Positions 10,325 to 34,156 of a stretch of DNA of 64,000 bases are shown piece after piece; position 1 is the first letter of the stretch, and every line of letters begins with the position of its first letter. A program made the position numbers and the translations under genes. Location of the stretch: positions 1 to 64,000 of the forward strand of contig JAWAFD010000005.1 in NCBI GenBank assembly GCA_038890745.1, read 5' to 3'. The notes beneath the pieces are model-generated. The model was not told where the DNA came from and searched no databases. It worked only from the letters and a program-made list of their open reading frames with translations. The DNA is from Candidatus Anstonellales archaeon. GTDB taxonomy: Archaea; Micrarchaeota; Micrarchaeia; Anstonellales; J096.

Positions 10325-10374
10325 AAATAGTCGCATTTTAGACCAATTTTATTAAATTTTGGAACTTTTTGCGA
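10325..10374. repeat. Palindromic direct repeat R1, copy at the ATPase 3' end
   Basis: 49/50 identical to 11588-11637; inverted arms TCGCA/TGCGA and CCAA/TTGG; contains the stop codon. Confidence 0.9.
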
Positions 10375-11560
10375 CCAAAAGCGGGATCAGCTGGTGCTCC
10401 TTTATAACAATCCCCTTAGGGAATTCCCTAAGCTGCATCCTTCCTTTTTCCTCTCCTCCTATTTCTACTACTACTCTCTCCCCTCCCCTTTCTATTATAT
10501 AATCTGGTGATTTCTTCTCACCCTTAATCGTATGGACCAGCCATCCTCGCTCCGAAAGACCAAAAACAGCAAGCTCCTCTCTAACCGCTCCTATTTCAGG
10601 TTGTTTCCCAAGCTGCTTGCAGATAGCATACCTCATATTTGGATGGAAAAAAAGAAGCTTAGGCTCTGCACGCACAAGAGACGCACCCCTTCTGTACGGC
10701 CTGATTACACGGATTATTTCCATTCCAGCAAGCGCATCCACTATCTCGTACACCACAGTCTTAGAAACATGCAAACTAGAAGAGAGTGAGGTAATGCTAA
10801 GCTCCCCTGGCTTTGAGGTAGCGAGAAAATTGAGCAGGTTTTCCATAGCAAAAACTTTCTCTTTTGACATTTTAAGAAAGAAAACCGCATCCTCTCTTAT
10901 AGATTTCCTTATGGAGTTGTAGATCGCATCCAATGCTTTTTCCTCATCCATATCAAGGGAAAGAGGAAACCCGCCAATCCGCGCGTAGGGTTGAAGGTTG
11001 ATCGCAGCTTCATTATTTGCTGCAATAAACTCCATCGCCCTCTCCCCATCCATCCATTCCTCACCCGCATAAATACTTTTTCCGGTTTTAAGTAGTATCC
11101 ACTCCCCCATGTCCATCTCATGGAGGCATATGAGCTCTTCTCTTCTTTCAGGAACGAATGCAAGAGGAGCACTCCCGCTCGCAACTATCCATATGGATGG
11201 GAATTCATCATGCAATGCTTTTATCTCCTCTCTCCATTTTGGATATGTATGAACCTCATCCATGAAAAGAAGTACAAATCCATTCTTTATCGCTGTCTTT
11301 GCTATGCTGTATATCCCATACCTCTTCACCACTGGATTATCGGTTGAAAAGTAGATAGACCTTTCTTTATTTTCACCAAACGCATGAAGCATGGCTGTTG
11401 TTTTTCCAACCCCTCTAAACCCCCTAAGAAGCTTAATCCTTGGCTTTTTTTTCAGAGAGGAAAGAATGGTGTGCACAACATCTCTTCTCTTAAACTCCTT
11501 CACGGAATTGTACAATGAGAGTGCGATCACCCTCAACTCAGTTATATCCAACTCCTCCAT
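10352..11560 (-). CDS. AAA+ ATPase, AAA_14/DUF4143 type
   Basis: GFRGVGKTT, FMDEVH, ASGS, GGFP, C-terminal PD...VEIGG nuclease-like domain; start MEELD at 11560 preferred. Confidence 0.85.
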   Translation of the reverse strand: MEELDITELRVIALSLYNSVKEFKRRDVVHTILSSLKKKPRIKLLRGFRGVGKTTAMLHAFGENKERSIYFSTDNPVVKRYGIYSIAKTAIKNGFVLLFMDEVHTYPKWREEIKALHDEFPSIWIVASGSAPLAFVPERREELICLHEMDMGEWILLKTGKSIYAGEEWMDGERAMEFIAANNEAAINLQPYARIGGFPLSLDMDEEKALDAIYNSIRKSIREDAVFFLKMSKEKVFAMENLLNFLATSKPGELSITSLSSSLHVSKTVVYEIVDALAGMEIIRVIRPYRRGASLVRAEPKLLFFHPNMRYAICKQLGKQPEIGAVREELAVFGLSERGWLVHTIKGEKKSPDYIIERGGERVVVEIGGEEKGRMQLREFPKGIVIKEHQLIPLLVAKSSKI

Positions 11561-11587
11561 AGGATGATTTTGAGACAAAAGTTTTTT

Positions 11588-11637
11588 AAATAGTCGCATT
11601 TTAGACCAATTTTTTTAAATTTTGGAACTTTTTGCGA
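11588..11637. repeat. Palindromic direct repeat R1, copy upstream of the ATPase
   Basis: 49/50 identical to 10325-10374. Confidence 0.9.
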
Positions 11638-11671
11638 ACATTACGCAGAAAACACATGGGGTAGAAAAAAG

Positions 11672-11723
11672 TGTTCAAAAAACCGACCAAAAATAGCTAA
11701 AAATGGTCGGAAGTCTGAACAAA
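11672..11723. repeat. Palindromic direct repeat R2, copy upstream of the second ATPase
   Basis: 52-bp identity with 12936-12987; TGTTCA..CCGACCA..TAGCTA..TGGTCGG..TGAACA. Confidence 0.9.
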
Positions 11724-11754
11724 CTTTAAAAAACCTTCGCTGCCCAGTATAATC

Positions 11755-12960
11755 ATGGTAGAGCTAGATAGACTGTACAGGATTGCTCTGGAAAACGCTG
11801 CAGCCGTTAGTACATACAGGAAAAGATTTGCATATGAAAAACTTAAGGAATTAGTAATAAAAAGAAAGTCTGGCAAGTTCCCTATCGTACTACTCTCTGG
11901 AATTAGAGGTGTTGGGAAAACAACATTGATGCTTCAGCTGTTCAGTGAAATGAATGGAGCTTTTTACTTCTCAGCCGATTCTATATTAGTAAAAACCTCA
12001 ACGATATACGCCATTGTTGAACAAGCATACAGGGAGGGGTATGACCCAATATTCATAGACGAGATACATAGGTACCCAAGATGGATCGAAGAATCAAAGA
12101 ACATTTATGATGATTTCGGCATCCGCGTTATCGCCTCTGGATCTTCTACAGCAGCGATTAAAAAAGGGGGCATACTCCTTGGAAGACGGGCTGTTGATTT
12201 TCAACTCCCCCTTCTAACCTTTGGGGAGTTTTTCTATCTACGGGAAAATGAGAGGTACTCAGCAACGATGGACGAGGTCGTGAACAAAAAGTCAGCGATC
12301 AGATGGCTGGCAGCGCATCCAAAGGTGGATAGATACTACAAGAACTATTTCTCTACCGGTGGGTTTCCCATGACCGTAAGCGAGAAAGGGGCGATCTTCA
12401 AACTTATTAAACGCATGATATATGAGGATGCCCTCGCAGAGTTCAGCCTTACTAAGAATAAAGTAGATGTTGCAGAACGTCTTTTGGGTTTTCTCTCACT
12501 CTCGAAGCCCGGAGAATTCAGCTACACCTCATTTTCTTCTATGAGCGGTTATGCAAAATCCACAGTGTATGAAACAATCAGCATGCTAAAAGAACTTGAA
12601 ATCTTGCGAAGCATTGAGGAAAAAACACCAAAATCCGAAGCAAAGGGAACGATGAAGCTGCTCTTTTCCCATCCTAACCTGAGAAGTGCTTTTGCAGAAC
12701 AATTGATGAAAGAACCTGAATTCGGAGCGCTCAGGGAGGAATACTTCCTTTTCCACATGGCAAGCTTGGGCCATCCTATTTTTATTCCAAAAAAAATGAA
12801 GAAGAATCCGGATTACATAGTAAAACTAGAAGATAGCACACTGATTTTTGAAATTGGTGGCGGTTCAAAAACAGCTGAGCAGTTGGGTAAAAAAGGAGTA
12901 GTGATGGATGACAATAGCCTAATGGTATTGGGATTTGTTCAAAAAACCGACCAAAAATAG
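11755..12960 (+). CDS. AAA+ ATPase, AAA_14/DUF4143 type
   Basis: GIRGVGKTT, FIDEIH, ASGSS, GGFP, NPDY..FEIGG; paralogue of the divergent neighbour. Confidence 0.88.
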   Translation: MVELDRLYRIALENAAAVSTYRKRFAYEKLKELVIKRKSGKFPIVLLSGIRGVGKTTLMLQLFSEMNGAFYFSADSILVKTSTIYAIVEQAYREGYDPIFIDEIHRYPRWIEESKNIYDDFGIRVIASGSSTAAIKKGGILLGRRAVDFQLPLLTFGEFFYLRENERYSATMDEVVNKKSAIRWLAAHPKVDRYYKNYFSTGGFPMTVSEKGAIFKLIKRMIYEDALAEFSLTKNKVDVAERLLGFLSLSKPGEFSYTSFSSMSGYAKSTVYETISMLKELEILRSIEEKTPKSEAKGTMKLLFSHPNLRSAFAEQLMKEPEFGALREEYFLFHMASLGHPIFIPKKMKKNPDYIVKLEDSTLIFEIGGGSKTAEQLGKKGVVMDDNSLMVLGFVQKTDQK

Positions 12961-12987
12961 CTAAAAATGGTCGGAAGTCTGAACAAA
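12936..12987. repeat. Palindromic direct repeat R2, copy at the ATPase 3' end
   Basis: Identical to 11672-11723; contains the TAG stop at 12958-12960. Confidence 0.9.
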
Positions 12988-13017
12988 TAGGTATAACGCA
13001 TCCCCGCAATCACGCTC

Positions 13018-13325
13018 GCGGAACCCAGGGGAGGTCGTAGGAGGTTTTCTTTTGGCGACCTCCCCCATGTTCTACGATACTCCCCACCCCCTCCGCAATC
13101 ACGCTCGCATACGCTCGCTTGGGGATAGGTTTTTAAGCACTTAGGAGGATATTATAGTATATGGTGATAGGTGTAAAAGAGAGGAAGGATAAGGAAGTTA
13201 AGTTTTCTGATAAAATTAGAAGGAATTTTGAGAGGTTTAAGGATAAGGTTGAGGGATTGGGGAAGAAGGCAATTATTTTAGGTGGAGTTGGGATTGGAGT
13301 AGGTCTAGGGTGTGCGAGTGATGGA
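13018..13325 (+). repeat. J1 repeat copy 1 (hairpin, ACGCTCGC repeats, B promoter and B leader coding sequence)
   Basis: Near-identical to 17638-17945 (offset 4620); 13088-13319 is also repeated at 15021-15252. Confidence 0.95.
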
Positions 13326-13667
13326 GTTAGTCCAAAACAGTACACACTAGATCAGGTTCAAAGTGGACGGATAACGATTGATGAATTTGTAGAAAACATG
13401 GACCTGTACAGTTTGTGTTACACAAAAGAGGATTCAATAGCTATGGTGGCTATTTTCTGGTGGAAAACAACTGGAAGTAAAGATCCATTAATTTGGGAAA
13501 AATTAATAAGAGGGGAGAATGTAGATTATGAAAGAACTTATCCTCCAAGTGGTCCACCACCTTTTAACGTTAGCAGAGATGATTTGTACGGTTTAAGGGT
13601 AGCTACGTCACCGTATGTAGATACTCTAATTCAACGCGCAAAAGACGGTGCTCCTCTTATTAAATAA
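13161..13667 (+). CDS. B1: exported or lipoprotein-like variable partner protein, convergent with cassette C5
   Basis: Leader MVIGVKERK...AIILGGVGIGVGLGC identical to B2 and B4; variable body with TKEDSI motif. Confidence 0.85.
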   Translation: MVIGVKERKDKEVKFSDKIRRNFERFKDKVEGLGKKAIILGGVGIGVGLGCASDGVSPKQYTLDQVQSGRITIDEFVENMDLYSLCYTKEDSIAMVAIFWWKTTGSKDPLIWEKLIRGENVDYERTYPPSGPPPFNVSRDDLYGLRVATSPYVDTLIQRAKDGAPLIK

Positions 13668-13670
13668 GGC

Positions 13671-14351
13671 TCATTTACCTTCCTTGAATTGTTCTTTTAA
13701 TGCATTCAACTCTTCTCCAGCTTGTTTTTTCAGTTCTGGAACTGCCACCACTCCTCCAGCATAGCCTATAAGTATGTTCATTTTTATTGCAGATTTATCG
13801 TACTTAAATAAATTCAACTTATTTGAGCTTTGAGAAAAAGTTTTCCCATATTCTGACAATTGTCCTGATTCCATAGAGGACAACATTACTGACCAGGCCC
13901 TTATTCCATATTTCTCATCAAGTTGCTGTTTTACTTGAGGGTCAGTAGAGTATTGTTGTATTAAATCGTCAGCTTTTTGTAGTGCTAGTTCAGTACTTTC
14001 TCCTTTGGAAATAAAATCATCAGCAATAGAAGTACGTAATCCCACCCCTATGTAATAAACTTCAGAAAACCCTGGGGTTTCTTGTTTGATTTTTTTTGTG
14101 AGCTTCTCCCCCGCCTCCGGATCTTTTCTTAAAATTTCTTCAATCTGTGTTCTTTTATCCTCTTCACTCAATTCTTTATTTTCTAATATTGCTGCAATCT
14201 GTTCTGAAACTGTTGCCGCTCTCTCATACAAACTTATTTGTTCTCTTTTCCATTCCTCAAACTGTTTTTCATTAGGAAGTTTTCCTTTCCATTTAGTTAG
14301 ATAAGCAGCATATAAGCTTCTTTCTATTTCTGTTGCTGGCATTAGTTCTGA
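13671..14351 (-). pseudogene. C5: 5'-truncated alternative C-terminus cassette of gene A (C1 subtype)
   Basis: 14215-14351 is near-identical to 20188-20324 (SELMPATEIERSLYAAYLTKW...YERAA), then an open divergent C-terminus; 5' end abuts the TA module region. Confidence 0.85.
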
Positions 14352-14439
14352 ATTACATTCAATATATGGAGAAAAGGAGGCCCATTCATTAGGCGAAATA
14401 TTTTTAAGGTTAGGATGAGTATATATCAAAGGTGAAAAC

Positions 14440-14646
14440 GTGGAGACTATTACTGTGAACGTAAATTTGCTTAAGGAAATGTACAAAAGAATACTTAGAA
14501 TAGAGGAAGAGATAAAGGAAATTAAGTACGCGGTTGTCGAGATAGAAGAAGTATCAGAGAGGGAGATTAAACAACTCGAAAAAAGAAAGAAAGAAGCATT
14601 AAAAGGAATGGGAATCCCACTCAACAAAGCATTAGAGGAATTTTGA
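14440..14646 (+). CDS. Putative antitoxin
   Basis: 68-aa ORF directly upstream of a RelE-type toxin; C-terminus GIPLNKALEEF. Confidence 0.7.
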   Translation: METITVNVNLLKEMYKRILRIEEEIKEIKYAVVEIEEVSEREIKQLEKRKKEALKGMGIPLNKALEEF

Positions 14647-14648
14647 AT

Positions 14649-14921
14649 ATGAGGGAATTCAGGATTATTATACACAAGCAGGTAATAAAGCAGCTTAGAA
14701 AGTTAGATGCACGCATAAGAAATAATGTAAAAAAGGTTCTGGTTCATCTACAGTATGACCCGGTACCTGCAAAGTCATATGATATAAAGAAACTTTCAAA
14801 AGGAGAAGGACATTACAGAATAAGAATAGGAAAATTTAGAGTTCTATATTGGGTTGATTTTACAAATTATCTGATTGTAGTAACGGATATCAAACGAAGG
14901 GACGAAACAACATACAAATAG
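14649..14921 (+). CDS. RelE/ParE family toxin
   Basis: KQLRKLD...DP...KKL..G..HYRIRIGKFRVLY...IVVTDIKRRDETTYK. Confidence 0.9.
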   Translation: MREFRIIIHKQVIKQLRKLDARIRNNVKKVLVHLQYDPVPAKSYDIKKLSKGEGHYRIRIGKFRVLYWVDFTNYLIVVTDIKRRDETTYK

Positions 14922-15020
14922 TGTACCAAACCCCTCTAAGATATCTAATGTGGGTTAAAGCAAAACTTAGGTTAGGTTAAATAATGTTCTAGATGATGTC
15001 TTCCGTGCTCTATGCTACTT

Positions 15021-15252
15021 CCCCTCCGCAATCACGCTCGCATACGCTCGCTTGGGGATAGGTTTTTAAGCACTTAGGAGGATATTATAGTATATGGTGA
15101 TAGGTGTAAAAGAGAGGAAGGATAAGGAAGTTAAGTTTTCTGATAAAATTAGGAGAAATTTTGAGAGGTTTAAGGATAAGGTTGAGGGATTGGGGAAGAA
15201 GGCAATTATTTTAGGTGGAGTCGGGATTGGAGTAGGTCTAGGGTGTGCGAGT
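15021..15252 (+). repeat. J1 repeat, partial copy
   Basis: Matches 13088-13319; preceded by a degenerate version of the upstream J1 sequence. Confidence 0.9.
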
Positions 15253-15552
15253 AAGGATGACAGTATTTATTCGTACTACAATGTTACGACTGCCGACTCA
15301 ATTAGCCTGGATGAATTTAGGCAGTATGTATATCGTGGAGCAGTAACAAGAGAGGACAGCCTACTCGGTCTAGGTAAGTTTATATGTGAAATATGGGGGT
15401 TCATACCAACTGAAGAAGAGTTCTTTAGTATGCCTATGTTGGAGTCTCAAAGAAAGTTTTTTGTATATATCATTGCGGAAAGAGACTATTACAAGTTATT
15501 AATAGAAGCGTTAGAAACGATTAAAAAAGAAGAAAAGTTAGAAAAAAAATAA
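15094..15552 (+). CDS. B2: variable partner protein, convergent with cassette C4
   Basis: Same 53-aa leader as B1 and B4; TREDSL motif. Confidence 0.85.
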   Translation: MVIGVKERKDKEVKFSDKIRRNFERFKDKVEGLGKKAIILGGVGIGVGLGCASKDDSIYSYYNVTTADSISLDEFRQYVYRGAVTREDSLLGLGKFICEIWGFIPTEEEFFSMPMLESQRKFFVYIIAERDYYKLLIEALETIKKEEKLEKK

Positions 15553-15574
15553 TTATTCTCTCATAAAGAAAAAA

Positions 15575-16431
15575 CTAAAATCCGCCAAGTAAAACATAGA
15601 GCTTCAAATCGCTTACATTTTCTGGTGGCTTAGACCACGCATCCTTATTTTTTGTTATCCTATCGAGAAATTGAGTTAGGTCACAACCTCCCTCTTTAAA
15701 TGCTTGGGTAAAACCTTGCGGGTCAAAGGTTTCTGGTTTTAAAAACGATGCAGCGTCATCCAATTTCCTCATTTTCTCTTCTTTTTCTTTTCCATCTGGA
15801 ACAAAAGAAAGTTCGCCCTGAGCTTTAGTTATATACTCACTCGCTAGCCCACTCAGCCCACGAAACGCTGCTATTTTGTCTTCATCACTCAATTCTTGAT
15901 AAGTAGTCCCTCCAGTTAAAACAGCATAGGCAAGTCGATACTCGTCCGCTCTTTTATCAAAGTAGCTCTGAACTTTTTTAAGTGCTTTTTCATCCCCTTT
16001 AAGTGCTTTATCAAGGGATTTTCTAAGTTCTATATCTTCCCCTGTAAGTTTTTTAGGATCTGCTCCAAGAGTAGCGCTTAGTATACTATACTCTTCTCTT
16101 TCCGCTCTATATTTCTCCGGATTCATATACGCATCCATCAATATTTTTCTCGCCTCTCTTAACTCTCCTTCGTTCATCCCTAAACTTATTACATCATCTC
16201 CAATCCGTATGTTTCCTTTCCAAGCAATTGATAAGGAAGCTATTATTTGAAGTGTATTTTGCGCCTCTTCATACGGTTTGGCTTTATCTATTGTTGCTTG
16301 GAGGTCTTGGTATTCTGGAGTTTCTTTCTCTACTGTAAATATTGCTTTTCTTGCTTCCTCGGCCTCTTTTAGAATATTTGGGTCAAAGGTTCTACTTAAT
16401 AAAAATGCTTGGTTTGTTTGCTCAGTTATTT
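15575..16431 (-). pseudogene. C4: 5'-truncated alternative C-terminus cassette of gene A
   Basis: 16120-16431 matches gene A 21748-22059; in-frame TAA and no ATG upstream of the homology block; divergent open C-terminus. Confidence 0.9.
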
Positions 16432-16494
16432 TTAGGAGCAGGTAGGGGATAGGTTTTTAACTATTTCTTAGCATATTATAATTAGTGTATTAGT

Positions 16495-17076
16495 ATGATA
16501 GTAGATGGAAAAACGAGAGAGTTTGGATTTACCAAGAAATTTAGGGAATTTGCTAGAAACTTAGGATTTAAAGGAAGGGATGTTTTGGTTGCTGGAATAA
16601 TCGGAACTGGAATTTTATCTGGCAAGGCTGGAGCCCAGCAGGCAGATTCTTTAGTTATAGATACAAGCTCTGTTCATATAGATTCTACTTATATAGACTG
16701 GAGTAAACCAAGGTTTATGGGATTGACTTATGGTTATTATTATGATTGGTTTAAAGTAACAGGAGTGGCTGCTTATCGTCTTTATATGGAATATGGTATG
16801 AGCTATTCTGATGCGTTAACGTGGCTCGATAGTGTTCAAACAGCAGGGTCAATCAAGACTTTCCCATATAACCAACCCCAAACAAGAGAGGATACAATTA
16901 AAACGATAATTGATTATTTTAAGTTGCACTACAATTTATTCCCCAAGAGTGATACTGAACTTGAATGGTACATAAAAACTCACCCAAATAAGGCTGAGCA
17001 GATAAAAACAGATTGGTACATAATACGAAATAGTCCTTATTGGCCTTATCTGGTAGAAGTTGGAAGCAAAAGATAA
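16495..17076 (+). CDS. B3: variable partner protein with signal peptide, convergent with cassette C3
   Basis: Shared promoter block at 16445-16460; charged n-region then VLVAGIIGTGILSGKAGA; TREDTI motif; overlaps the C3 3' end by 31 nt. Confidence 0.8.
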   Translation: MIVDGKTREFGFTKKFREFARNLGFKGRDVLVAGIIGTGILSGKAGAQQADSLVIDTSSVHIDSTYIDWSKPRFMGLTYGYYYDWFKVTGVAAYRLYMEYGMSYSDALTWLDSVQTAGSIKTFPYNQPQTREDTIKTIIDYFKLHYNLFPKSDTELEWYIKTHPNKAEQIKTDWYIIRNSPYWPYLVEVGSKR

Positions 17077-17637
17077 ATAGCAAGCGAATTTCTATTTAAA
17101 TTTTCCAAGATATTTGTTGCGGATTGTAAAGATTTCTGTTTTCCCTTAGCGCCCTCTACAGCAGTTTGGTAATACTTTTCAGAAAGTTTTTCTAATTGTT
17201 TTTTTTCTTCGTCACTATATTGTTCTGTTTTAAAGAATAATAATAGTGCAATTTTAGCATCATCTTTTTCAAAGTTACCTCCACTAGCAATAACAAAACC
17301 AAGTATATCCCGACCCCGTTGCAACCTATCCTCCTCACTCATTGTAGATGGGTCTTGTTGAATAAATTCAAGAGTAGTAGTTACATTATTCAATCTTGTA
17401 TTATTATAGCTACTCAATTCAGCTATCAATTCCTTCATAGCTTTTTTATCTCCTTTAAGTGCTCTTTCTGTGAGAGTTAACAATTCTTCATCTTGGGTTG
17501 TTAATTCTTCTGGTTTTTTAATACGAACCTCTGTTATTAATGAAATAGCTTCTCTTTCCGCTCTATATTTCTCCGGATTCATATACGCATCCATCAATAT
17601 TTTTCTCGCCTCTCTTAACTCTCCTTCGTTCATCCCT
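17046..17637 (-). pseudogene. C3: alternative C-terminus cassette of gene A with short homology block
   Basis: Begins GMNEGELREARKILMDAYMNPEKYRAERE as in C4; homology stops at 17637 where J1 begins. Confidence 0.85.
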
Positions 17638-17945
17638 GCGGAACCCAGGGGAGGTCGTAGGAGGTTTTCTTTTGGCGACCTCCCCCATGTTCTACGATAC
17701 TCCCCACCCCCTCCGCAATCACGCTCGCATACGCTCGCTTGGGGATAGGTTTTTAAGCACTTAGGAGGATATTATAGTATATGGTGATAGGTGTAAAAGA
17801 GAGGAAGGATAAGGAAGTTAAGTTTTCTGATAAAATTAGGAGAAATTTTGAGAGGTTTAAGGATAAGGTTGAGGGATTGGGGAAGAAGGCAATTATTTTA
17901 GGTGGAGTTGGGATTGGAGTAGGTCTAGGGTGTGCGAGTGATGGA
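17638..17945 (+). repeat. J1 repeat copy 2
   Basis: Near-identical to 13018-13325. Confidence 0.95.
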
Positions 17946-18296
17946 ATTAGAACATACAATATAGGTAGTAGAACATACTATATCTTATCTACTTCTGAGA
18001 TCGAAAAAATGAGCATAGATGAATTAAGGGCCCATATTTATAAGGGTGCAACGACAAGAGACGATAGTATAACTTGTCTAGCCATGTATATGGCTGCAAG
18101 ATGGGGATCCATAATAGGGCATATACCGTTTGCTGATGAGTGGGGACGGATAATTCCAGAACCTACTCTTGAAGAACTACTGATAATAATGGGGGACGGA
18201 GCTGGAAACGACCAACCACCATACTACATTACAATACTCCTTGGATTATACGGTAGAACAAGTAGCGACGGTAGAACAGAGTTGGTTCCCAAATAA
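17781..18296 (+). CDS. B4: variable partner protein, convergent with cassette C2
   Basis: Same leader as B1 and B2; TRDDSI motif. Confidence 0.85.
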   Translation: MVIGVKERKDKEVKFSDKIRRNFERFKDKVEGLGKKAIILGGVGIGVGLGCASDGIRTYNIGSRTYYILSTSEIEKMSIDELRAHIYKGATTRDDSITCLAMYMAARWGSIIGHIPFADEWGRIIPEPTLEELLIIMGDGAGNDQPPYYITILLGLYGRTSSDGRTELVPK

Positions 18297-18336
18297 AAAA
18301 CAAATAAAGTAAAACTTTATTAATAACTATGTATGT

Positions 18337-19145
18337 CTAATATGCACACAGGATTCGAATTTTTAATTCCTTCAAACTTTTTGGTGGGCTAGAGTAGACA
18401 TCTCTAATGTCTCTTCTCTCGCTAGCAAAAGTAGCTTGGTCAACTCCAATGTCTCCTAATACTTTTGTAAAGTCTTGTAGGTTAAAAGTTTCTATGTTCA
18501 TCAAGTAGGGATATAATGTGGATATTTTATGCAACAGGTATGGTTCGAATTCGCCTCCTACATACAAACCGCGTAGTGTTGTTTTTTTGTCTTCTTCATC
18601 TAGATTTTGATAGTCAACATTTCCAGTTAAAACATTATAAGCAAGGTCATAGTCATGTGCTTTTTCTCTAAAGTAGTTCTGAAGTTCTCTGAGTGCTTTT
18701 TCATCTCCGTTAATTGCTCTATCAAGATCTCTTCTAAGCTTGATGTCTTTTTCATCTGTAAGTTTCTCAGGATCTGCTGTAAGTGTAATAGCCAATAATC
18801 CATATACTGTTTTTTCTGCCTTATATTTCTCCGGATTCATATACGCATCCATCAATATTTTTCTCGCCTCTCTTAACTCTCCTTCGTTCATCCCTAAACT
18901 TATTACATCATCTCCAATCCGTATGTTTCCTTTCCAAGCAATTGATAAGGAAGCTATTATTTGAAGTGTATTTTGCGCCTCTTCATACGGTTTGGCTTTA
19001 TCTATTGTTGCTTGGAGGTCTTGGTATTCTGGAGTTCCTTGCTGCACTGTAGGAAGTTGTTTTTTTGCTTCATTAGCGGCCTCTATAATTTTTGGGTCAA
19101 AGGTTCTACTTAATAAAAATGCTTGGTTTGTTTGCTCAGTTATTT
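18337..19145 (-). pseudogene. C2: 5'-truncated alternative C-terminus cassette of gene A
   Basis: 18834-19145 matches gene A 21748-22059; no upstream start codon; divergent C-terminus related to C4. Confidence 0.9.
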
Positions 19146-19198
19146 TTAGGAGCAGGTAGGGGATAGGTTTTTAACTATTTCTTAGCATATTATGGTAT

Positions 19199-19651
19199 AT
19201 GATGATAGGTGTAAAAGAGAGGAAGGATAAGGGAGATAAGTTTTCTGATAAGATTAGGAGAAATTTTGAGAGGTTTAAAGAGAGAGTTGAACTAAAAGTA
19301 AAAAACACATCACCAAAGACAGGAATCTTATTATCTGCTCTGTTATTTGGAGAGTGGAGTCTCGTCAGCCTAGATGGTATGAAGTCAGTCCTTGAAGAAT
19401 CTGACCCGATTTATGGTCAAGTTTTCACAGAACTCTGCGATAAGATCTACTCTCGATGCACTACGAAACAAGATAGTATAGACGTTGCAAGAGCTACACT
19501 TAAAGAAGCCACTGGAAGTAGCGATCCAGAGATGTGGGTAAAAGTTTTTAGTAATCTTCTCAGCAACAGTTTTAGAGATGGAAAATGTACAAACGAGGAC
19601 TTTAAGTTATTGCTAATATTTTATGCTACTATTCCATATGCAAGCCAATGA
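19199..19651 (+). CDS. B5: variable partner protein, convergent with cassette C1
   Basis: N-terminus MMIGVKERKDKGDKFSDKIRRNFERFK like B1; TKQDSI motif; overlaps the C1 end by 23 nt. Confidence 0.8.
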   Translation: MMIGVKERKDKGDKFSDKIRRNFERFKERVELKVKNTSPKTGILLSALLFGEWSLVSLDGMKSVLEESDPIYGQVFTELCDKIYSRCTTKQDSIDVARATLKEATGSSDPEMWVKVFSNLLSNSFRDGKCTNEDFKLLLIFYATIPYASQ

Positions 19652-20641
19652 TAGATTTAAGCCCAATGGCAGTAGAAACTGCGAAATAATATCCTATAAG
19701 TAGATTCTGTTTAAAATATACACTGCCCATCTCTTCTACTTTATTTTGTTTTTTATCTAGATCAGTAATAATATTGGCAAGATGTTCTGAACTTGGTCTG
19801 ATTTCTACGGATGGGAGTCTTATCCCATCTATCATGAAATTCGCTATCGACATTGCATAGTATGGGGCTACCCTATCAGAAGCCTCTTTATTACCCGTTC
19901 CTGCTTTATTAAAAATGTCTAAAGCTTTTGGCATTGCATTTTGTATAGCCGCGACTTCATCTTTGGTCAAATTATCTGATTTTTTTCCAACTTCGACTCC
20001 TGCGATCTCCTGAGCTAAAAATATCCGCGCATTAGTAGATATAAAGGTGGACAAAGTGGGCATAAGTATATTAAATTCTTGTGCTAACAAACTTATGCTG
20101 GCGTAATCAAGACCAATTAATGCCTTCTCTATCTCCTCCTGACTCGCTCCTTTTTCCAATAAATCTGCTATTTCTTTTGCTTTATCCGCCGCTCTCTCAT
20201 ACAAACTTATTTGTTCTCTTTTCCATTCCTCAAACTGTTTTTCATTAGGAAGTTTTCCTTCCCATTTAGTTAGATAAGCAGCATATAAGCTTCTTTCTAT
20301 TTCTGTTGCTGGCATTAGTTCTGACCAATCTTTTCCATATAAAGAGATTATCTTTTCTCTCGCTTCTTTTAGTTCTTTTTCATTCATCCCTAAACTTATT
20401 ATATCATCTCCAATCCGTATGTTTCCTTTCCAAGCAATTGATAAGGAAGCTATTATTTGAAGTGTATTTTGCGCATCTTCATACGGTTTGGCTTTATCTA
20501 TTTTTGCTTGGAGGTCTTGGTATTCTGGAGTTCCTTGCTGCACTGTAGGAAGTTGTTTTTTTGCTTCCTCGGCCTCTTTTAGAATTTTTGGGTCAAAGGT
20601 TCTACTTAATAAAAATGCTTGGTTTGTTTGCTCAGTTATTT
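19629..20641 (-). pseudogene. C1: 5'-truncated alternative C-terminus cassette of gene A
   Basis: 20383-20641 matches gene A 21801-22059; diverges after GMNE. Confidence 0.9.
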
Positions 20642-20654
20642 TTAGGAGCAGGTA

Positions 20655-20670
20655 GGGGATAGGTTTTTAA
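20655..20670 (+). promoter_or_regulatory. Conserved BRE/TATA-like promoter block GGGGATAGGTTTTTAA of the B genes (representative copy)
   Basis: Identical 16-mer at 13121, 15054, 16445, 17741, 19159 and 20655, ending 24-34 nt before each B start codon. Confidence 0.75.
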
Positions 20671-20704
20671 CTATTTCTTAGCATATCATAATTAGTGTAT
20701 TAGT

Positions 20705-21232
20705 ATGGTAGAAAAAGTTAAAGTAAGGAAACAGGAGGATGCTAAAGAAACAGAAAATAGAGCGGGTATTTTTGAAAGGTTTAAAGATATAGTGGAGAGA
20801 TTTGGAAACAAGGCTTTAATTGCTGGGGTTCTTTTAGGTGGAGGTGTTGGAGTAGGAAAAGGATTCAGTATAAACGAAGGAGCTACATCTAGGCAGGATA
20901 GCATTAAAATAGAACTTGAGTTCTGGTTAGGATACGTTGACGCTTTCCAAACCTTTGGTATCGATGGAACCATAGTTAACCCTGAATTGGCGGATGAGAT
21001 ATATAAAGATGCTTCAACCAAAAGCGATAGCACTACACAAGCAATAAATTTTTGGCTTAGGGAAACAGGGCAGGTCCCATACTCAAGTATAGATGTTTGT
21101 ATAATGCTCAAGATACTGGCCACGATGGATTGGGAAGACTTAGCAACTTTCAGCCAATATGCGCAACGAATTAGCGATGGATGGCTATTAACTCAACCCT
21201 ATCTTAACAAAGAGATTAATTCAAATCGTTAA
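20705..21232 (+). CDS. B6: variable partner protein, convergent with full-length gene A
   Basis: FERFKD..E.FG.KALIAGVLLGGGVGVG leader; TSRQDSI and STKSDST motifs; overlaps the A stop by 12 nt. Confidence 0.85.
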   Translation: MVEKVKVRKQEDAKETENRAGIFERFKDIVERFGNKALIAGVLLGGGVGVGKGFSINEGATSRQDSIKIELEFWLGYVDAFQTFGIDGTIVNPELADEIYKDASTKSDSTTQAINFWLRETGQVPYSSIDVCIMLKILATMDWEDLATFSQYAQRISDGWLLTQPYLNKEINSNR

Positions 21233-23539
21233 TAGTAAAATCTTTGTTTTAAAGTTCATAGGATTTATTCCTTGATCTATTTTTTTCTTGTTATTGTCAA
21301 TCTCCAAAGTAAGTTTGGAGTTTTGCTCCTTTATATCCTTCACTACTTGTTCTTGTACCTGAGGATTCGAGTCCAAAAACTGCATAGTGAATAGTATTTT
21401 ATCTTCAATAGTTGGGAATTTTTTTACCTCATCTTGATATTCCACTCCACCATATTTATAAGATAGCGCAACAATATTACCAAAAACTCGGGATGTGGTT
21501 GCTTTATCAAAGGAACTTATATCACCACCTTCCAAAAGCGTTAGTGCAGCATTATACGCGAGTAAACGTCTCTCTTGCTCTAGATACAGTTGATTCCTAA
21601 CTCTTTCCAATGCTTTCTCATCTCCACTTGCCGCTTTTATTATATCCTCTCTCAGTTTCTTATCCTCATCTGTTATTTGTTTTTCGGGCGTTCTTAATGC
21701 AACAATAATTGGTGCAAGCAAACTTTTTTCGTCTTTATATTTCTCTCGATTCATATACGCATCCATCAATATTTCTCTCGCCTCTCTTAACTCTCCTTCG
21801 TTCATCCCTAAACTTATTATATCATCTCCAATCCGTATGTTTCCTTTCCAAGCAATTGATAAGGAAGCTATTATTTGAAGTGTATTTTGCGCATCTTCAT
21901 ACGGTTTGGCTTTATCTATTTTTGCTTGGAGGTCTTGGTATTCTGGAGTTCCTTGCTGCACTGTAGGAAGTCGTTGTCTTGCTTCATTAGCGGCCTCTAT
22001 AATTTTTGGGTCAAAGGTTCTACTTAATAAAAATGCTTGGTTTGTTTGCTCAGTTATTTCGGCAATGAATTTTTTTCCTTCTTCTGTGCTTAACAATTCT
22101 TTATCGTTTACTATTTCTGAACAAAGACCAAAAGCTCTTGAGAGTTGGGTGTATAATTGAGCTTTTGCTTCGTCTTCTTCTGCTTTTGCTGATGCCCTGT
22201 ACAACTCTGAGAGGTTTGAGTAGATTGCCTTTTTATCTTTTGGATCTACTTCCTTTCCTTCTAAAAGCTTTTGGAGTTCGGATGAATTCTCTGTTAGGTA
22301 CTTTAGCTGCTCTCTTGCCGCTCCTCTCATTAGTCCTCCCACTATTGCCTCAGAGACACCAAAAAATTCAGCTAATGAAGCAATATTTCCACGTGCAAAA
22401 CCAACCATCAAAGCCGCTGAAAATATCTGGCTTACACCAAACTGTCCTGTTGCTATTGCTACTCTCTGCTGGCCTGCCCTTAACTCACCTCCTCCGCCCC
22501 CCTCCTTCACTTTCTTTCCTGTCCAGAACCTCCCTTTTCCAACTCCTCTTAATCTTTCTTCTACTATTCCCATATTCTCCGCTATCCATGCTGGTCTTCC
22601 TCTTATCAACCCTTCTTTTACCCTACCGGGAAGAATTTTTGTCGCAATTCCTCCCATTGCTTCAACCGCTTTGGTAGCTGCTCTGGTTGTTACAGAGACG
22701 CCTTTTTCCACTGCTTCAACAGCTTTTTTAATAAAAGAAACTTTCTTTCCTAACTCAACTGCTTTTCCGCCAAGTTTTTTTGCATGTGGGGCGACCTTAG
22801 CCACGACCTTAGCCTGTTGCAGAGTAATCCCTCCCTTCCCTGTTATTCTTGCTCTTTGGCCTGTAATAAATCTTAAAGTATTCAGATCAAACCAGAAAAA
22901 TGGGCTTCCACCAGTGGCATAGGAAGCAGCGAGAAGCATGCCTGCGATTATAAAAAGAGGTAAGCAGATTGCAGGTGCGGTTCCTCCAAAAAGAGGAGGA
23001 AGGAGTGTTGGGATGTAAACGACTTGGGCATATGTTGGGGAAAGGGTTGCAAAAATAGGCTGACCATTTTTATTTATGTATGCTGACTCAGGCCATGGGG
23101 CTGGTTTAAACCCTCCGCATGGAGAAACATCTTCAAAAGAGGTTATACTTTCGTTTAGGCAGGGCTGGAGAAGGCAGTTTGGAGAAGAGGAGCAGCAAAA
23201 CTTTACACCTATCGTACACCCCCTTACCATCCCTGTTCCTGAGCATGTTTCGTTATAAGGTGTTAGGTCAAAAACCGCTTTTCCATTCTCATTTGTAAAA
23301 ACCCTGCACCTAGAATAAAGGTCACCAGTTGCATTATACACTTCAATAAATAGGGTTGCGTTCCCAACAGGAAGCCTTTCTCCATTATAAACGGCATACA
23401 TGTATATATCTACATTTTTTTCAACCAAACCTGCAATAATCCCGGATTCATAAGCATTAAAAAGCTCCTCACAGCCAGGGCAGGGAGGCTGAGAGAAAAG
23501 CAAACTCATAAAAAATAAAAGAAAAAATACTTTTCTCAT
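21221..23539 (-). CDS. Gene A: 772-aa membrane protein with exchangeable C-terminal domain (putative expression locus)
   Basis: Signal peptide, Cys-rich domain, TM helix, basic linker, second hydrophobic segment, conserved block ITEQTNQAF...MDAYMN repeated in the cassettes, unique C-terminus. Confidence 0.9.
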   Translation of the reverse strand: MRKVFFLLFFMSLLFSQPPCPGCEELFNAYESGIIAGLVEKNVDIYMYAVYNGERLPVGNATLFIEVYNATGDLYSRCRVFTNENGKAVFDLTPYNETCSGTGMVRGCTIGVKFCCSSSPNCLLQPCLNESITSFEDVSPCGGFKPAPWPESAYINKNGQPIFATLSPTYAQVVYIPTLLPPLFGGTAPAICLPLFIIAGMLLAASYATGGSPFFWFDLNTLRFITGQRARITGKGGITLQQAKVVAKVAPHAKKLGGKAVELGKKVSFIKKAVEAVEKGVSVTTRAATKAVEAMGGIATKILPGRVKEGLIRGRPAWIAENMGIVEERLRGVGKGRFWTGKKVKEGGGGGELRAGQQRVAIATGQFGVSQIFSAALMVGFARGNIASLAEFFGVSEAIVGGLMRGAAREQLKYLTENSSELQKLLEGKEVDPKDKKAIYSNLSELYRASAKAEEDEAKAQLYTQLSRAFGLCSEIVNDKELLSTEEGKKFIAEITEQTNQAFLLSRTFDPKIIEAANEARQRLPTVQQGTPEYQDLQAKIDKAKPYEDAQNTLQIIASLSIAWKGNIRIGDDIISLGMNEGELREAREILMDAYMNREKYKDEKSLLAPIIVALRTPEKQITDEDKKLREDIIKAASGDEKALERVRNQLYLEQERRLLAYNAALTLLEGGDISSFDKATTSRVFGNIVALSYKYGGVEYQDEVKKFPTIEDKILFTMQFLDSNPQVQEQVVKDIKEQNSKLTLEIDNNKKKIDQGINPMNFKTKILLLTI
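21748..22059 (-). repeat. A-repeat: ~312-bp coding block shared with the cassettes
   Basis: Copies at 18834-19145, 16120-16431, 20383-20641 (partial) and 17576-17637 (short), all in direct orientation. Confidence 0.95.
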
Positions 23540-23574
23540 AGTAGTTCTTCTAAGTGAAGCTTTAAATATCTTTT

Positions 23575-26500
23575 CTAATCATCAATCCAGCAATCCGAAA
23601 CCCTTGTTTTAAGAGGAACGTCAAACCCGCAGAAATTCGCGTATGTGCTTCCTCTTACGCATTCCTTGCTCTCATTTCCCGAAGTAGAGAATAGGATAGG
23701 AATGGGTTTTATGGAGGAGGACTGAATCGATAAGAATGTTTTTGTGTTGTCCGCAACACAAATTTTTGGAAGCCCTTTTATAGAAGCAATTAGGTCTGAA
23801 TACAAAGATGGCTCTGCCATCACATCCTGCAAAGGGTATTCCTCAAAAGAATACTTTCCTGCGCTGTAAACCCGACATTTTAGATTTCCAGAATAGGGAG
23901 GGGAAATACACATCTCTTTTACAACACAACCCTCTGGCCATTTCTGATTTCCAGAATATCCAGAGCACTGAAAACCAGTAAGCGGGTCGCCCAAATAATA
24001 CCCATTACAAACACCTCTAAGAATGTCGACCTCATCACATTCAACGCAGACGCACTCCTCGGAAACCTCGGCTTCGCTAACAAACGCATATGGGGTAAGA
24101 CCTGATGAAATCTCAGCAGAGGATTCAACAGAACAGTAATCCTGCATATTTAAAGACGAGCCATCTGAGATGCTGAAATCAGAGAAATGCATCCCAATTA
24201 TCCCTGAATTAACAAACCTTGCCCTTTGATAGGCAAGGTAGTTGAACATTCCATACTTATCTACAGGAGTGTTTACCTCTCTGATCATTAGCAGGGATGG
24301 CTTCCCGAACCTAGAAACAAGTTTTCTTGAAATGTTGTTTAATTTTTGAACAACGTATTCGTAAAACTTTATTTTTTCCTCTTCATTGTTAAGCGGAATT
24401 TTTGGGTTTATTTTTACTTCAACAATAAAAAGGTCTGAATTTTCCATAAGGGAATTGCATTGCTGCCCTGCAAAAGTTCCTTCCCTGGCACAGAACTCCT
24501 CTCCCGCTAAATGGTCTGACATTTCTAAACCATACGCACTGTCAAAATTCTCAAGGAAAGACCTTTCAGAGTTTATATCCTGCGAATCAATGCCGGTTAT
24601 GGTAATCTCACCTGAAAGCGCAGGCATACAATAGGGGCATGGTTCCTTAACCTCCATTGCCCTCTTCTCTAAATTTATTTCATAGTTGTTTCTTTCTTTT
24701 GCATTCCCTATAACAACAATTATCGGCCCCAAAGAGGATGCAGATTCTTTGTAATCGCCGGCATGGTTTCCTTGGTAGTCATCTGCGGCATAAAGCAGGC
24801 TTACGTATATATCGCGAAGGAGTTTGTATGCAAATGTTGCATCCTCTTTGTAAACCGTGCGCTCAGGTTCATAGCAGCTATCGCATCCATAGTAAGTTTT
24901 GTAAAGCTCATCATCTTCGGCATAAAGAACTGGCATAACCCCTGAAAATAGATAAGAAGTAAGCTTTCCTTTCATGTATTTCCAGTGAGGATAGAAATCA
25001 GGCCAGGAAACACGGGCATCATAGACATCACCATCTTGTCTTGTCGCATCCTTGCAGCCAAAAGCTAAATTGTAAGCATCGCACCTAAGCTGGTCATCAC
25101 GATGCCCTCCACACGCAACCCTTGCATCAACACTACCAGTGGAGATAACACGCCCGTTTTCATAAACCTCTCCAACAGTTTTTCCCTCCCACTCATTTGG
25201 GTTTCGCGCATTCAGGTTTGAGGGTGGCAGGATCTCAAGGAGAGGGCAGTAGTTTGCTATTCTTTTGTTTATTTCATTTGTAGTATCAGCCTCGTAATCA
25301 TTCTTAAAATCTTCATAAGGTCCTTCTGGATAATCCGCAAGGTCTATTCGCGCTATTCCATTATTTTCAGAAATGGGAAGATCTTCGCTATTCGGGTCTC
25401 CGCCAGTCGGGTCATAGAATTCGTTTAATGGGTAAAGATGCTCAACAGCAATTGTGTTGAAGGTTGCAGGCTCGCACCATCCATATTCCTTTACAACTAT
25501 GTTGCCCATTTCATCGGTTAAGCAGTTTCCAAAATTTCCATCCTTATTTTTTCTTATTACTATTGCTGCGGATGCATACGCGCTGCATTCGCCATCCTCT
25601 CCCTGAGAGACGCAAAAATCATCATCTGTTAAACCAGAGCATATTTCTCTCCAATTTTCACCCATGCTCGAACCATCCAACCCGAATTTCGGGGGATAGC
25701 ACACGGCGATATCATCTTTGTATTCTTCGCTCATGCAGTTTTCTATAAAATTCACAACATACGTCCCTCCTTCCTGGCATCCACTCCAGGTGGTTGGAAC
25801 AATCTGGCAGTAATGAAGAATTGCCCATCTCGTTGGCTGGTCGTTCGGAAGAGGATAGTTCACAATCGGGCCGAGTGTTGAGCTGACGTCCCTTGAAAGG
25901 AATATCATAATCTTCCCATTGCTTATCTTTCCTGAAACCGGTGAAGGAGGAGTAAACAACCATTCTTCTGTTTTCAGGGATGCTCTACTCACTCCTAGAG
26001 TTTCCCCATCCCACATATCCACACTATTTTTTGGTTCATCTGAAGCAGGAACAGATTTTGTTCTTGTTGGGTTGCAGGCAACAGAGCCATACTCGTAGGA
26101 ACAGCCGCACTCAACACCTTTGTTTGTTGAAGCATGTATGCATACACTCCTTTTGTAAACGTTATTTCCACAAACCCCAGAGTAGCACTCAAACCCGCTC
26201 TCACATTCAAACTCTGCTTTTCCACCCTCAAAAATCTGTGAGGCATAAATCGTGTGTCTAGGAAGAACGTTTGCATAATAGGTTGGAATTTCCTTAAACC
26301 CAAAAATTCCAACAGTTGCAGCAGTCAACCCGGTTCCTTCTTTTGCGAATTTTAAAACCCCGACATTTGCTGTTCTTCCATCGTTCGGATATTGTAATTC
26401 AACCTCTCCCTGGCTCCAGAAAGTATTTCCTCTACCAGCTGCGCTCTCATCCTCAACATCTGCCCAGAAAAGCCCTCCGTACCAGTGCTTCACAGAACCC

Positions 26501-27267
26501 GGCTCATCCCCGAAAGGAGAGTTTGGAAGGGAAAGGGATTGGGTGGGGGAGGAGCAAACCATTGCTGGGTTTATCCCTCTGCATTCCCATTCGCACTCAT
26601 AGTAAGAGGAGTATTCTTTGCCGTTTTCTGTGCAGGAATAAGCGCCATTTGTTTGTTGGCATTTTTTTTCAGCAAAAAAATAGTTTGAATACCTATCTTT
26701 TGTTCCAGTGTAGGAATTTAAGACCTTATCTGAGAGCGGGAAGAGGTACCGGTAAGTATCGTATTCCTCAAAGCTTTCTCCGATTCCAAACCTAAAACTA
26801 TTCAGCATAAGCCCTTTGCTCATCGCGCTTTCAACAGAAGGGGTCATTTTCAAAACATCGCATTCTGCATGCAGAAGGCCAAAAACAGCTCCTTGGCCTG
26901 TTGGAAGTTCTATGTTTCCCTTCTCAACATCCTCATGGCTTATGAGAAGGGGAATGCCTATCTTTCCAAAATCACCGCAGAGCATTCCAGAGCATCCCTC
27001 AACACAAGATTTTACCTCCCATTCTGAACAAACAGAATAGTTGAAATCCTCAACCTCACAGAAAATAGGCTCATCATTTTCTTTCCATACTTTACAATCA
27101 TCTTCACCAGTATAGCTAGGGTCTTCTGCGAGCTTGTCCGCAAAATAGCATTTATCGTTTTGAGCATATTTGTAAAGGCAGCAGTGCGCCTCTGGTTTCT
27201 GGAAGCAACCAACCATAAGAAGAAGCGCAAAACCCAAAAACAAAATAAATAATTTTCTTACTTTCAT
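23575..27267 (-). CDS. Large Cys-rich secreted or lipoprotein surface protein (1230 aa)
   Basis: MKVRKLFILFLGFALLLMVGC lipobox-like signal; many Cys; acidic composition. Confidence 0.8.
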   Translation of the reverse strand: MKVRKLFILFLGFALLLMVGCFQKPEAHCCLYKYAQNDKCYFADKLAEDPSYTGEDDCKVWKENDEPIFCEVEDFNYSVCSEWEVKSCVEGCSGMLCGDFGKIGIPLLISHEDVEKGNIELPTGQGAVFGLLHAECDVLKMTPSVESAMSKGLMLNSFRFGIGESFEEYDTYRYLFPLSDKVLNSYTGTKDRYSNYFFAEKKCQQTNGAYSCTENGKEYSSYYECEWECRGINPAMVCSSPTQSLSLPNSPFGDEPGSVKHWYGGLFWADVEDESAAGRGNTFWSQGEVELQYPNDGRTANVGVLKFAKEGTGLTAATVGIFGFKEIPTYYANVLPRHTIYASQIFEGGKAEFECESGFECYSGVCGNNVYKRSVCIHASTNKGVECGCSYEYGSVACNPTRTKSVPASDEPKNSVDMWDGETLGVSRASLKTEEWLFTPPSPVSGKISNGKIMIFLSRDVSSTLGPIVNYPLPNDQPTRWAILHYCQIVPTTWSGCQEGGTYVVNFIENCMSEEYKDDIAVCYPPKFGLDGSSMGENWREICSGLTDDDFCVSQGEDGECSAYASAAIVIRKNKDGNFGNCLTDEMGNIVVKEYGWCEPATFNTIAVEHLYPLNEFYDPTGGDPNSEDLPISENNGIARIDLADYPEGPYEDFKNDYEADTTNEINKRIANYCPLLEILPPSNLNARNPNEWEGKTVGEVYENGRVISTGSVDARVACGGHRDDQLRCDAYNLAFGCKDATRQDGDVYDARVSWPDFYPHWKYMKGKLTSYLFSGVMPVLYAEDDELYKTYYGCDSCYEPERTVYKEDATFAYKLLRDIYVSLLYAADDYQGNHAGDYKESASSLGPIIVVIGNAKERNNYEINLEKRAMEVKEPCPYCMPALSGEITITGIDSQDINSERSFLENFDSAYGLEMSDHLAGEEFCAREGTFAGQQCNSLMENSDLFIVEVKINPKIPLNNEEEKIKFYEYVVQKLNNISRKLVSRFGKPSLLMIREVNTPVDKYGMFNYLAYQRARFVNSGIIGMHFSDFSISDGSSLNMQDYCSVESSAEISSGLTPYAFVSEAEVSEECVCVECDEVDILRGVCNGYYLGDPLTGFQCSGYSGNQKWPEGCVVKEMCISPPYSGNLKCRVYSAGKYSFEEYPLQDVMAEPSLYSDLIASIKGLPKICVADNTKTFLSIQSSSIKPIPILFSTSGNESKECVRGSTYANFCGFDVPLKTRVSDCWIDD

Positions 27268-32966: not shown

Positions 32967-32970
32967 CCCA

Positions 32971-34095: not shown

Positions 34096-34156
34096 CGCTA
34101 GGAGTTGAAAGTAAGCGCTTAAAAATGTTTTGTATTCAAAGAAACAAGGGGAGAGT

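Follow-up and report, generated by a model that had tools for sequence, protein, structure and literature searches.

What would an archaeal cell do with six tail-to-tail gene pairs, only one of which contains a complete carrier gene? The locus in question lies in a window of 64,000 nucleotides (nt), the whole stretch of DNA analysed here (G000:C5:1-64000; contig JAWAFD010000005.1 of assembly GCA_038890745.1), from the 0.99 Mb, 94% complete genome (G000) of a hot-spring Candidatus Anstonellales archaeon. It consists of gene A, encoding a full-length membrane protein, five orphan cassettes (C1 to C5) that carry part of A or of C1 followed by alternative C-termini (CTs), and six partner genes (B1 to B6). 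The front of A is conserved and membrane-anchored and its helical tail is exchangeable, each tail type travelling with its own type of B; strains differ in the pair that occupies the expressed slot, and spare pairs are stored downstream. We consider this architecture, and the exchange of tail plus partner between strains, to be very probably correct. As to function, a reading that we rate as a serious possibility, a little short of probable, is that the locus encodes a polymorphic effector and an immunity partner acting outside the cytoplasm, and that it is attached to a VirB6/CedA-like contact machine, which is chromosomal and related to type IV secretion.

Organisation of the array

An earlier, sequence-only reading of this stretch described six units, each with a B gene on the forward strand facing a C cassette or A on the reverse strand. 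Reading of the window with an open reading frame (ORF) check recovered all six in the same places, and the spacing of the partner 3' ends agrees exactly (gaps of 3, 22 and 40 nt; overlaps of 31, 23 and 12 nt). The G+C content of the array is 36.6%, compared to 42% in its flanks, and its components are as follows.

13161-13667, + strand: B1, 168 aa, partner of C5
13671-14351, - strand: C5, truncated orphan cassette; 137 nt common to C1 only
15094-15552, + strand: B2, 152 aa, partner of C4
15575-16431, - strand: C4, orphan cassette; its tail type is present on the full-length relative P0002
16495-17076, + strand: B3, 193 aa, partner of C3; 8 divergent metagenome relatives
17046-17637, - strand: C3, orphan cassette with the repeat cut to 83-89 nt
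17781-18296, + strand: B4, 171 aa, partner of C2
18337-19145, - strand: C2, orphan cassette
19199-19651, + strand: B5, 150 aa, partner of C1
19629-20641, - strand: C1, repeat plus an alternative tail of the WSELMP type, without a start of its own at the junction
20705-21232, + strand: B6, 175 aa, partner of the tail presently on A
21221-23539, - strand: A, 772 aa, sole full-length copy in the array
21724-22059, - strand: shared repeat R inside A, putative homology arm for tail exchange; copies in C2, C4, C1 and C3

The block of A at R recurs in C2 (336 nt, 96% identity), C4 (333 nt, 91%), C1 (288 nt, 94%) and C3 (83 nt, 93%), and the stretch shared by C5 and C1 is 99% identical, in keeping with the claim that every cassette carries part of the central block of A or of C1. 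A genome-wide search found no further copy of the A block. The alleles of R are mosaic among the copies. C1, C2 and C4 have the same first codon of A, and the junction that joins each of them to the promoter of the next B is identical. In the reading frame of the repeat, none of the five orphan tails (133-185 codons) contains a stop, compared to 4-23 stops in each of the other frames, and for each tail 0 of 20000 base shuffles stayed open; the C-termini thus differ and yet remain open, as had been read. The tails of A and C1 to C5 are diverged homologues of one another, not unrelated domains.

Hydropathy gives A a signal peptide (residues 4-22), a Cys-rich extracellular domain and one strong transmembrane (TM) helix (190-208), followed by a basic Gly/Ala-rich region, a marginally hydrophobic segment (372-390), a helical domain, the shared repeat (residues ~494-605) and the variable C-terminus. 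A hydrophobic segment (>1.2) within 450 aa after the TM motif occurs in 21 of the 31 orthologues that carry the motif. The model of residues 400-772, which include A's own tail (the only one folded among the tails and B proteins), is all-helical with a mean predicted local distance difference test (pLDDT) score of 81; Foldseek gave it no match at E<=0.001, and the best VIA hits (Z up to 7.0) were generic helical bundles. An Atlas structure search with residues 1-300 gave weak MG2/Ig-like rows (TM-score 0.29-0.39 by query), below the bar. Pfam (24 proteins) and NCBIfam (14 proteins) returned nothing over cut-off for the A, B, C and upstream U genes.

Exchange of tail and partner between strains

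A protein search with residues 380-772 of A returned four sequences, A itself and three full-length relatives (P0002, P0003 and P0004), two of them named Ca. Anstonellales, which bears out the suggestion of a probable DPANN host. Their fronts are respectively 72, 71 and 60% identical to A over ~650-700 aa. P0002 ends in a tail of the C4 type (81% over 282 aa, to its end), P0003 in one of the C5 family (51% over 216 aa) and P0004 in a C3-like tail (41% over 196 aa). P0010 (MEM4215809.1), which is 82% identical to B2, has an accession and a locus tag consecutive to those of P0002 (MEM4215810.1), and the two lie on contigs of equal size; P0010 therefore adjoins P0002, and a tail that the window keeps as a spare (C4) is the expressed one in that strain, alongside a partner of the same type. 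P0003 adjoins P0013, a member of the B1/B5 family (scores 101 and 91, versus <=50 for other B), and near-identical C4 and B2 proteins are found on a contig of the same 11,083 nt as that of P0003. A C5/B1 pair is consecutive in QXG02 (QXG02_04500/04505), and another is tail to tail in G001 (55% and 46%). Adjacency in the three outside assemblies is read from consecutive tags, not from DNA.

Stored tails thus match the expressed tails of other strains, and comparison across related genomes finds different tail-partner pairs in the expressed slot; the proposal that a tail of A is exchanged together with its cognate B holds between strains (P0002/P0010, P0003/P0013 and the C5/B1 pairs). Four short-read runs (X1 to X4) of one hot-spring study contain the stretch. 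One contig in X4 joins sequence unique to A (22005-22168) to a C4-type repeat; X3 and X4 also contain tails of the C5 type whose repeat is intact. Of the read junctions expected between A and the C tails, one of C4 type was therefore seen, as a difference between strains; switching within one population was not. A scan of metagenome contigs with the repeat yielded 1 weak locus among 360 candidates.

Related tails also go with related partners, C2/C4 with B4/B2 and C1/C5 with B5/B1. Tail and partner similarity covary among the six window pairs (rho 0.46, 41/720 permutations) and among ten non-independent pairs, four of them from outside the window (rho 0.63, 13/20000).

In runs X3 and X4 a different sequence stands in place of the basic region of A that follows the TM helix (window 22621-22823), and P0002 and P0003 differ there as well. 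This region appears to be a second variable segment of A.

Partner genes and their putative promoters

All six B genes are preceded by a 13-nt purine-rich plus TATA-like motif, which accounts for 6 of its 8 copies genome-wide.

13018-13160, + strand: B promoter/leader, first of six copies, purine-rich plus TATA-like; putative promoter

The element lies 24-33 nt before each B start, the remaining copies being near 15057, 16448, 17744, 19162 and 20658, and it probably provides each B with its own promoter, as had been supposed. The conservation claimed for promoter and leader together stands for the promoter of all six; the leaders of B3, B5 and B6 are only weakly like those of B1, B2 and B4, and these two sets have nothing beyond promoter and leader in common. 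Leaders are shuffled relative to variable domains, which indicates a second crossover zone. At the N-terminus of each B, Lys/Arg-rich residues are followed by a weakly hydrophobic segment that closes with a Cys or an Ala-x-Ala motif. This is probably an export signal, and the variable domain of B is accordingly predicted outside the membrane and the variable tail of A in the cytoplasm.

A B profile returned 19 proteins; among 401 genomes of the class it had matches in two, G000 and G001, and in none of the others searched. Predicted as a complex, C5 (226 aa) and B1 (residues 52-168) scored 0.02 against a mark of 0.32 with controls not folded, which is evidence neither way. The hairpin in the 13018 leader was not above shuffles (z -0.75), Rfam found nothing over 11000-24000, and no RNA dataset holding the stretch was listed.

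A short GC-rich element containing a hairpin occurs in the B leader (window 13018-13100 and 17638-17720) and also in G001:C22 and on contigs C4 and C16 of G002, in which genome it also occurs alone elsewhere; it truncates C3 in the window and a C5-like cassette in G001. B-type promoters were also seen at three contig ends of G002 (contigs C1, C4 and C5: L031 end, L033 5446-5890, L034 end), where they precede a B3-like start and two other signal-peptide-like genes, which suggests partner-like genes at several loci in G002.

The upstream, putatively VirB6/CedA-like cluster

Gene A closes a cluster with genes for six paralogous membrane proteins, which is conserved among Micrarchaeota relatives; in the orthologue loci read, a series of multi-TM genes and a large Cys-rich gene immediately precede it. 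In the window these are as follows.

23575-27267, - strand: 1230-aa Cys-rich secreted or membrane-anchored protein, conserved neighbour upstream of A
27277-34338, - strand: U1 to U6, six paralogous multi-TM genes, VirB6/CedA-like

U1, the only U protein folded, was modelled from 125 sequences (pLDDT 86). Two programs agree on TrwI/VirB6, with scores that are modest and below the bar for helical proteins: the best of 48161 chains was 7o3v_F (Z 8.9, root-mean-square deviation 6.0, 224 aligned, residues 7-312; runner-up 8.5), and Foldseek ranked 8rt9_F first (probability 0.82, E 0.14). U3 gave a CedA1-domain lead (0.88), and the N-terminus of CedA is reported to be homologous to CedA1 (PMC9905601). 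Pfam on 125 members of the U family gave no consistent family, and a PDB sequence search with the U-family profile gave nothing significant. A VirB4-like ATPase is over cut-off (PF19044) at G000:C2, with a similar gene at C1:83853; neither adjoins the cluster.

Two alike sets of a membrane protein, a VirB4/HerA-like ATPase and a conserved small protein lie at C1:82142-85998 and C2:64073-67641 of G000, the former also containing a U-like gene. A second U-like cluster (G000:C1:232500-246100) lacks cassettes; a gene of 1559 aa takes the place of A there, and a Cys-rich gene of 809 aa is also present.

Distribution and a second lineage

Of the 61 genomes searched, 41 have a match to the front of A (Cys-rich domain plus TM helix), most often within an ORF of 1000-2200 aa. 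At 2 of these 41 orthologue loci, repeats of the tail were found beyond the gene; 8 of the 41 had <2 kb downstream. After A in G045, from a second genus in another family of the order, come in turn a signal-peptide gene in the same orientation, a cassette whose repeat measures 122 nt (95%), another partner gene and, at the contig end, a third repeat; of 42 genomes in that family, 5 gave a match to the G045 tail region. Four further loci were read. G085 has a 207-nt (94%) cassette and further partner paralogues without tails. In G087 the expressed tail and partner match the orphan pair of G045 (partner 58% identical) and another signal-peptide gene follows, both G085 and G087 thus storing partner genes without a tail cassette; G077 has one partner and G083 none. 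The partners of the second genus have no sequence likeness to B or C, and the system appears to have arisen or persisted in at least two lineages.

The sequence-only reading had taken tail-to-tail order as the defining novelty of the array. In that form the claim is not supported. Arrays of this A family with co-oriented partners are found in another family of the order, and under both layouts a single crossover within the repeat exchanges a tail together with its partner. Tail-to-tail order is thus a genus-level variant and not essential. G036, with a tail-to-tail signal-peptide gene and a 122-nt remnant, was not counted as an array as the remnant carries no alternative tail. In a sister genus (G003, L028 10526-11680), a co-oriented 353-aa gene with a basic N-terminus and a signal-peptide-like segment follows the A orthologue, possibly a partner without cassettes.

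A broader role, which we regard as possible though doubtful, is that A is the delivered payload of a Micrarchaeota-wide contact machine resembling a type IV secretion system (T4SS). Most lineages would direct its long variable tail at the host, with no need of a partner, and at least two would have turned it on other Micrarchaeota. The outcome would be an archaeal family of exchangeable effectors that act from outside, paired with exported immunity proteins, in warfare among related DPANN symbionts that compete for hosts.

Proposed mechanism

We propose that A acquires a stored or incoming tail by recombination within repeat R and that the partner of this tail is carried over with it, the conserved B leader acting as a second homology arm. 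Units bounded by R would loop in and out at the A end, which would explain the identical junction of C1, C2 and C4, and distal units (C3, C5) would erode. The claim that all B genes stay expressed after a switch is right for incoming DNA or gene conversion but not for looping out, which deletes the intervening units. On cell contact, the A tail would reach the outer face of a neighbour, by delivery or by display, and inhibit or damage that cell, whereas B, exported and sitting outside the membrane, would neutralise its cognate tail; six B genes under their own promoters would protect against six types of attacker. The effector would be harmless in the cytoplasm of its producer and act on the outer face of the contacted cell, a delivery step being assumed. 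Periplasm-acting bacterial effectors pair with exported immunity proteins. The presence of promoters on all orphan partners, together with partners stored without tails, favours protection over exclusion or a same-cell complex.

Several points weigh against an effector with immunity. No toxin domain or motif was over cut-off in A or any C in Pfam or NCBIfam, no processing site or protease was found for the A tail, and the predicted topology would oblige us to postulate either delivery or another crossing of the membrane. With a single strong TM helix and no likeness to U1-U6, which are the VirB6-like genes, A is not itself VirB6-like; its link to the machine rests on gene order, and the VirB6 match of U1 is modest. 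Cassette repeats at 2 of 41 loci imply that the general role of the family is not kin attack. Finally, the covariation within the window is borderline, and co-inheritance alone would produce covariation.

Alternative explanations

The alternative that survives best, which we regard as possible though doubtful, is non-lethal exclusion or self-recognition, in which surface-located B would detect the cognate A tail of an approaching cell and, much as Eex and TraS act on TraG, either prevent or permit docking or the passage of DNA through the VirB6-like machine. The locus resembles TraG/Eex (SXT/R391, IncC) and TraG/TraS (F) in its variable specificity region, adjacent partner gene and VirB6 context, exclusion genes adjoining their target in VirB6-type systems (PMC11493245); here A closes a VirB6-like cluster, and its tail is all helical with no enzyme fold and belongs to a set of diverged homologues. 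However, the known targets are the VirB6 homologues themselves, with cytoplasmic determinants (PMC11493245), whereas the variable A is chromosomal and not of that kind, and B appears exported. Many non-cognate partners are moreover stored with promoters, some without tails, which protection would fit more easily. The eex and traG genes are convergent, and entry exclusion has one pair per element, with no cassette arrays known to us.

Host recognition or antigenic variation seems to us unlikely. On this view the tail and its partner would sit together in a complex on one cell, serving to bind host surfaces or to escape viruses, and the cassettes would be a repertoire for switching. Micrarchaeota relatives are thought to be partly host-dependent (PMC12892359), and A orthologues with long variable tails (1000-2200 aa) are widespread among the genomes searched (41/61). 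A same-cell complex would, however, need the cognate B alone, yet all six B genes have promoters; orphan partners without tails would have no role, and the predicted topology separates tail from B.

That the array is an assembly artefact (strain alleles placed in tandem) or a set of neutral relics of repeated gene transfer is very improbable: short-read assembly had to cross repeats of 290-340 nt, no contig in the four runs spans the whole array (the unit order rests on the assembly), X2 has another joint and contigs of relatives break at the repeat (in G002, within that of its A gene), yet unit depths in X1 and X2 are near those of the flanks, a second assembly carries A plus C4 and B2 on its 11,083-nt contig, cassettes stand on single contigs in G001, G045 and G085, and all five tails are open. 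By a rough measure, from a single study of which X1 may be the source sample, the six unit-specific contigs in X1 have depths of 58, 64, 41, 42, 50 and 57 versus 62 on both flanks, and the five unit contigs listed in X2 have 7.9-13.4 versus 10.2-10.7. Alleles placed in tandem would split the flank depth, and depths near those of the flanks therefore argue against mis-assembled alleles. The different joint in X2, from 20261 to 14289 through the 137-nt repeat, was not counted as evidence, since an excised circle and a graph artefact are both possible.

Relation to known systems

The conserved front, variable C-terminus, silent downstream CT cassettes and cognate partner recall MafB/MafI of Neisseria, CdiA and Rhs (PMC4287609, PMC3482391). 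In the MafB/MafI account, a silent CT cassette equals the full-length CT of another strain, and the partner is the same when the CT is the same (PMC4287609). The same correspondence of stored cassette and CT expressed elsewhere, typical of polymorphic toxin systems (PTS), is seen here for C4 and P0002 and for the G045 cassette and A of G087, and the partners without tails in G085 and G087 resemble polyimmunity loci, which store immunity genes without a tail (PMC3482391). In contrast to MafB, contact-dependent inhibition (CDI) and Rhs systems, the host is a DPANN archaeon, the carrier is membrane-anchored and ends a VirB6-like cluster, the partner is probably exported and lies, in this genus, on the opposite strand behind a putative promoter of its own, and the tails are helical and are diverged homologues of one another. 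As no toxin domain is recognised in them, we do not file the locus as a polymorphic toxin system.

Among archaeal systems, Ced/Ted import is similar in consisting of domesticated chromosomal T4SS parts, CedA/TedA being VirB6-like and CedB/TedB VirB4-like (PMC9905601), and here the modest fold match of U1, the CedA1 lead and the VirB4/HerA-like ATPases point the same way. It differs in that six paralogues occur per cluster, in two clusters, with a large Cys-rich protein and an A-family gene attached; the excerpts of the Ced/Ted description mention no polymorphic pair (PMC9905601). VARTIG of Thermococcales is an archaeal hypervariable PTS-like module with a recombining C-terminus, cognate membrane proteins and no toxin domain found (PMC8416519), and is by analogy probably the closest archaeal counterpart of a PTS-like locus without a toxin domain; as described it is set apart by an Ig-domain variable end, co-directed genes, another phylum and no VirB6-like cluster (PMC8416519).

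No description of the locus was found in the literature searched, a scope that left aside the main archaeal polymorphic-toxin survey (Makarova et al. 2019) and supplements, in which arCOG-level tables may list the families. The words 'toxin', 'secretion' and 'VirB' are absent from the main text of a Micrarchaeota genomics paper (PMC12892359), and neither 'VirB' nor 'Ced' occurs in a Microcaldus cryo-tomography paper (PMC11329633). The contacts of DPANN archaea with hosts and with each other are poorly understood, and no cargo is known to be assigned to their VirB6-like clusters. The locus points to one gene of the cluster as its variable, specificity-bearing part. It offers six natural cognate pairs of small soluble domains, amenable to a 6x6 matrix without culturing the organism. 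Should the effector reading be true, polymorphic effector/immunity (or exclusion) systems would extend to DPANN, with families unnamed in the libraries searched.

Neighbouring features

One feature missed in the sequence-only reading is a toxin-antitoxin pair inside the array, between C5 and B2, which breaks the array at the truncated start of C5.

14440-14921, + strand: RelE/StbE toxin-antitoxin pair; toxin 14643-14921, with a 68-aa putative antitoxin gene upstream

The toxin is over cut-off for TIGR02385 (E 1e-6) and matches PF05016 (E 5e-5), and its 68-aa neighbour is probably the antitoxin. The pair would lie on a 5973-nt segment bounded by the 137-nt repeat, with a circular or duplicated junction in X2.

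To the left of the array, a perfect 52-nt direct repeat (11672-11723 and 12936-12987) brackets an AAA_14/DUF4143 ATPase gene (11755-12960), and a second, divergent AAA_14 gene lies at 10352-11599; in G036, an AAA_14-like gene follows the partner gene. Further along the window, 39612-41282 encodes a 556-aa protein with a peptidoglycan-binding domain over cut-off (PF01471, E 2e-6), in an archaeon.

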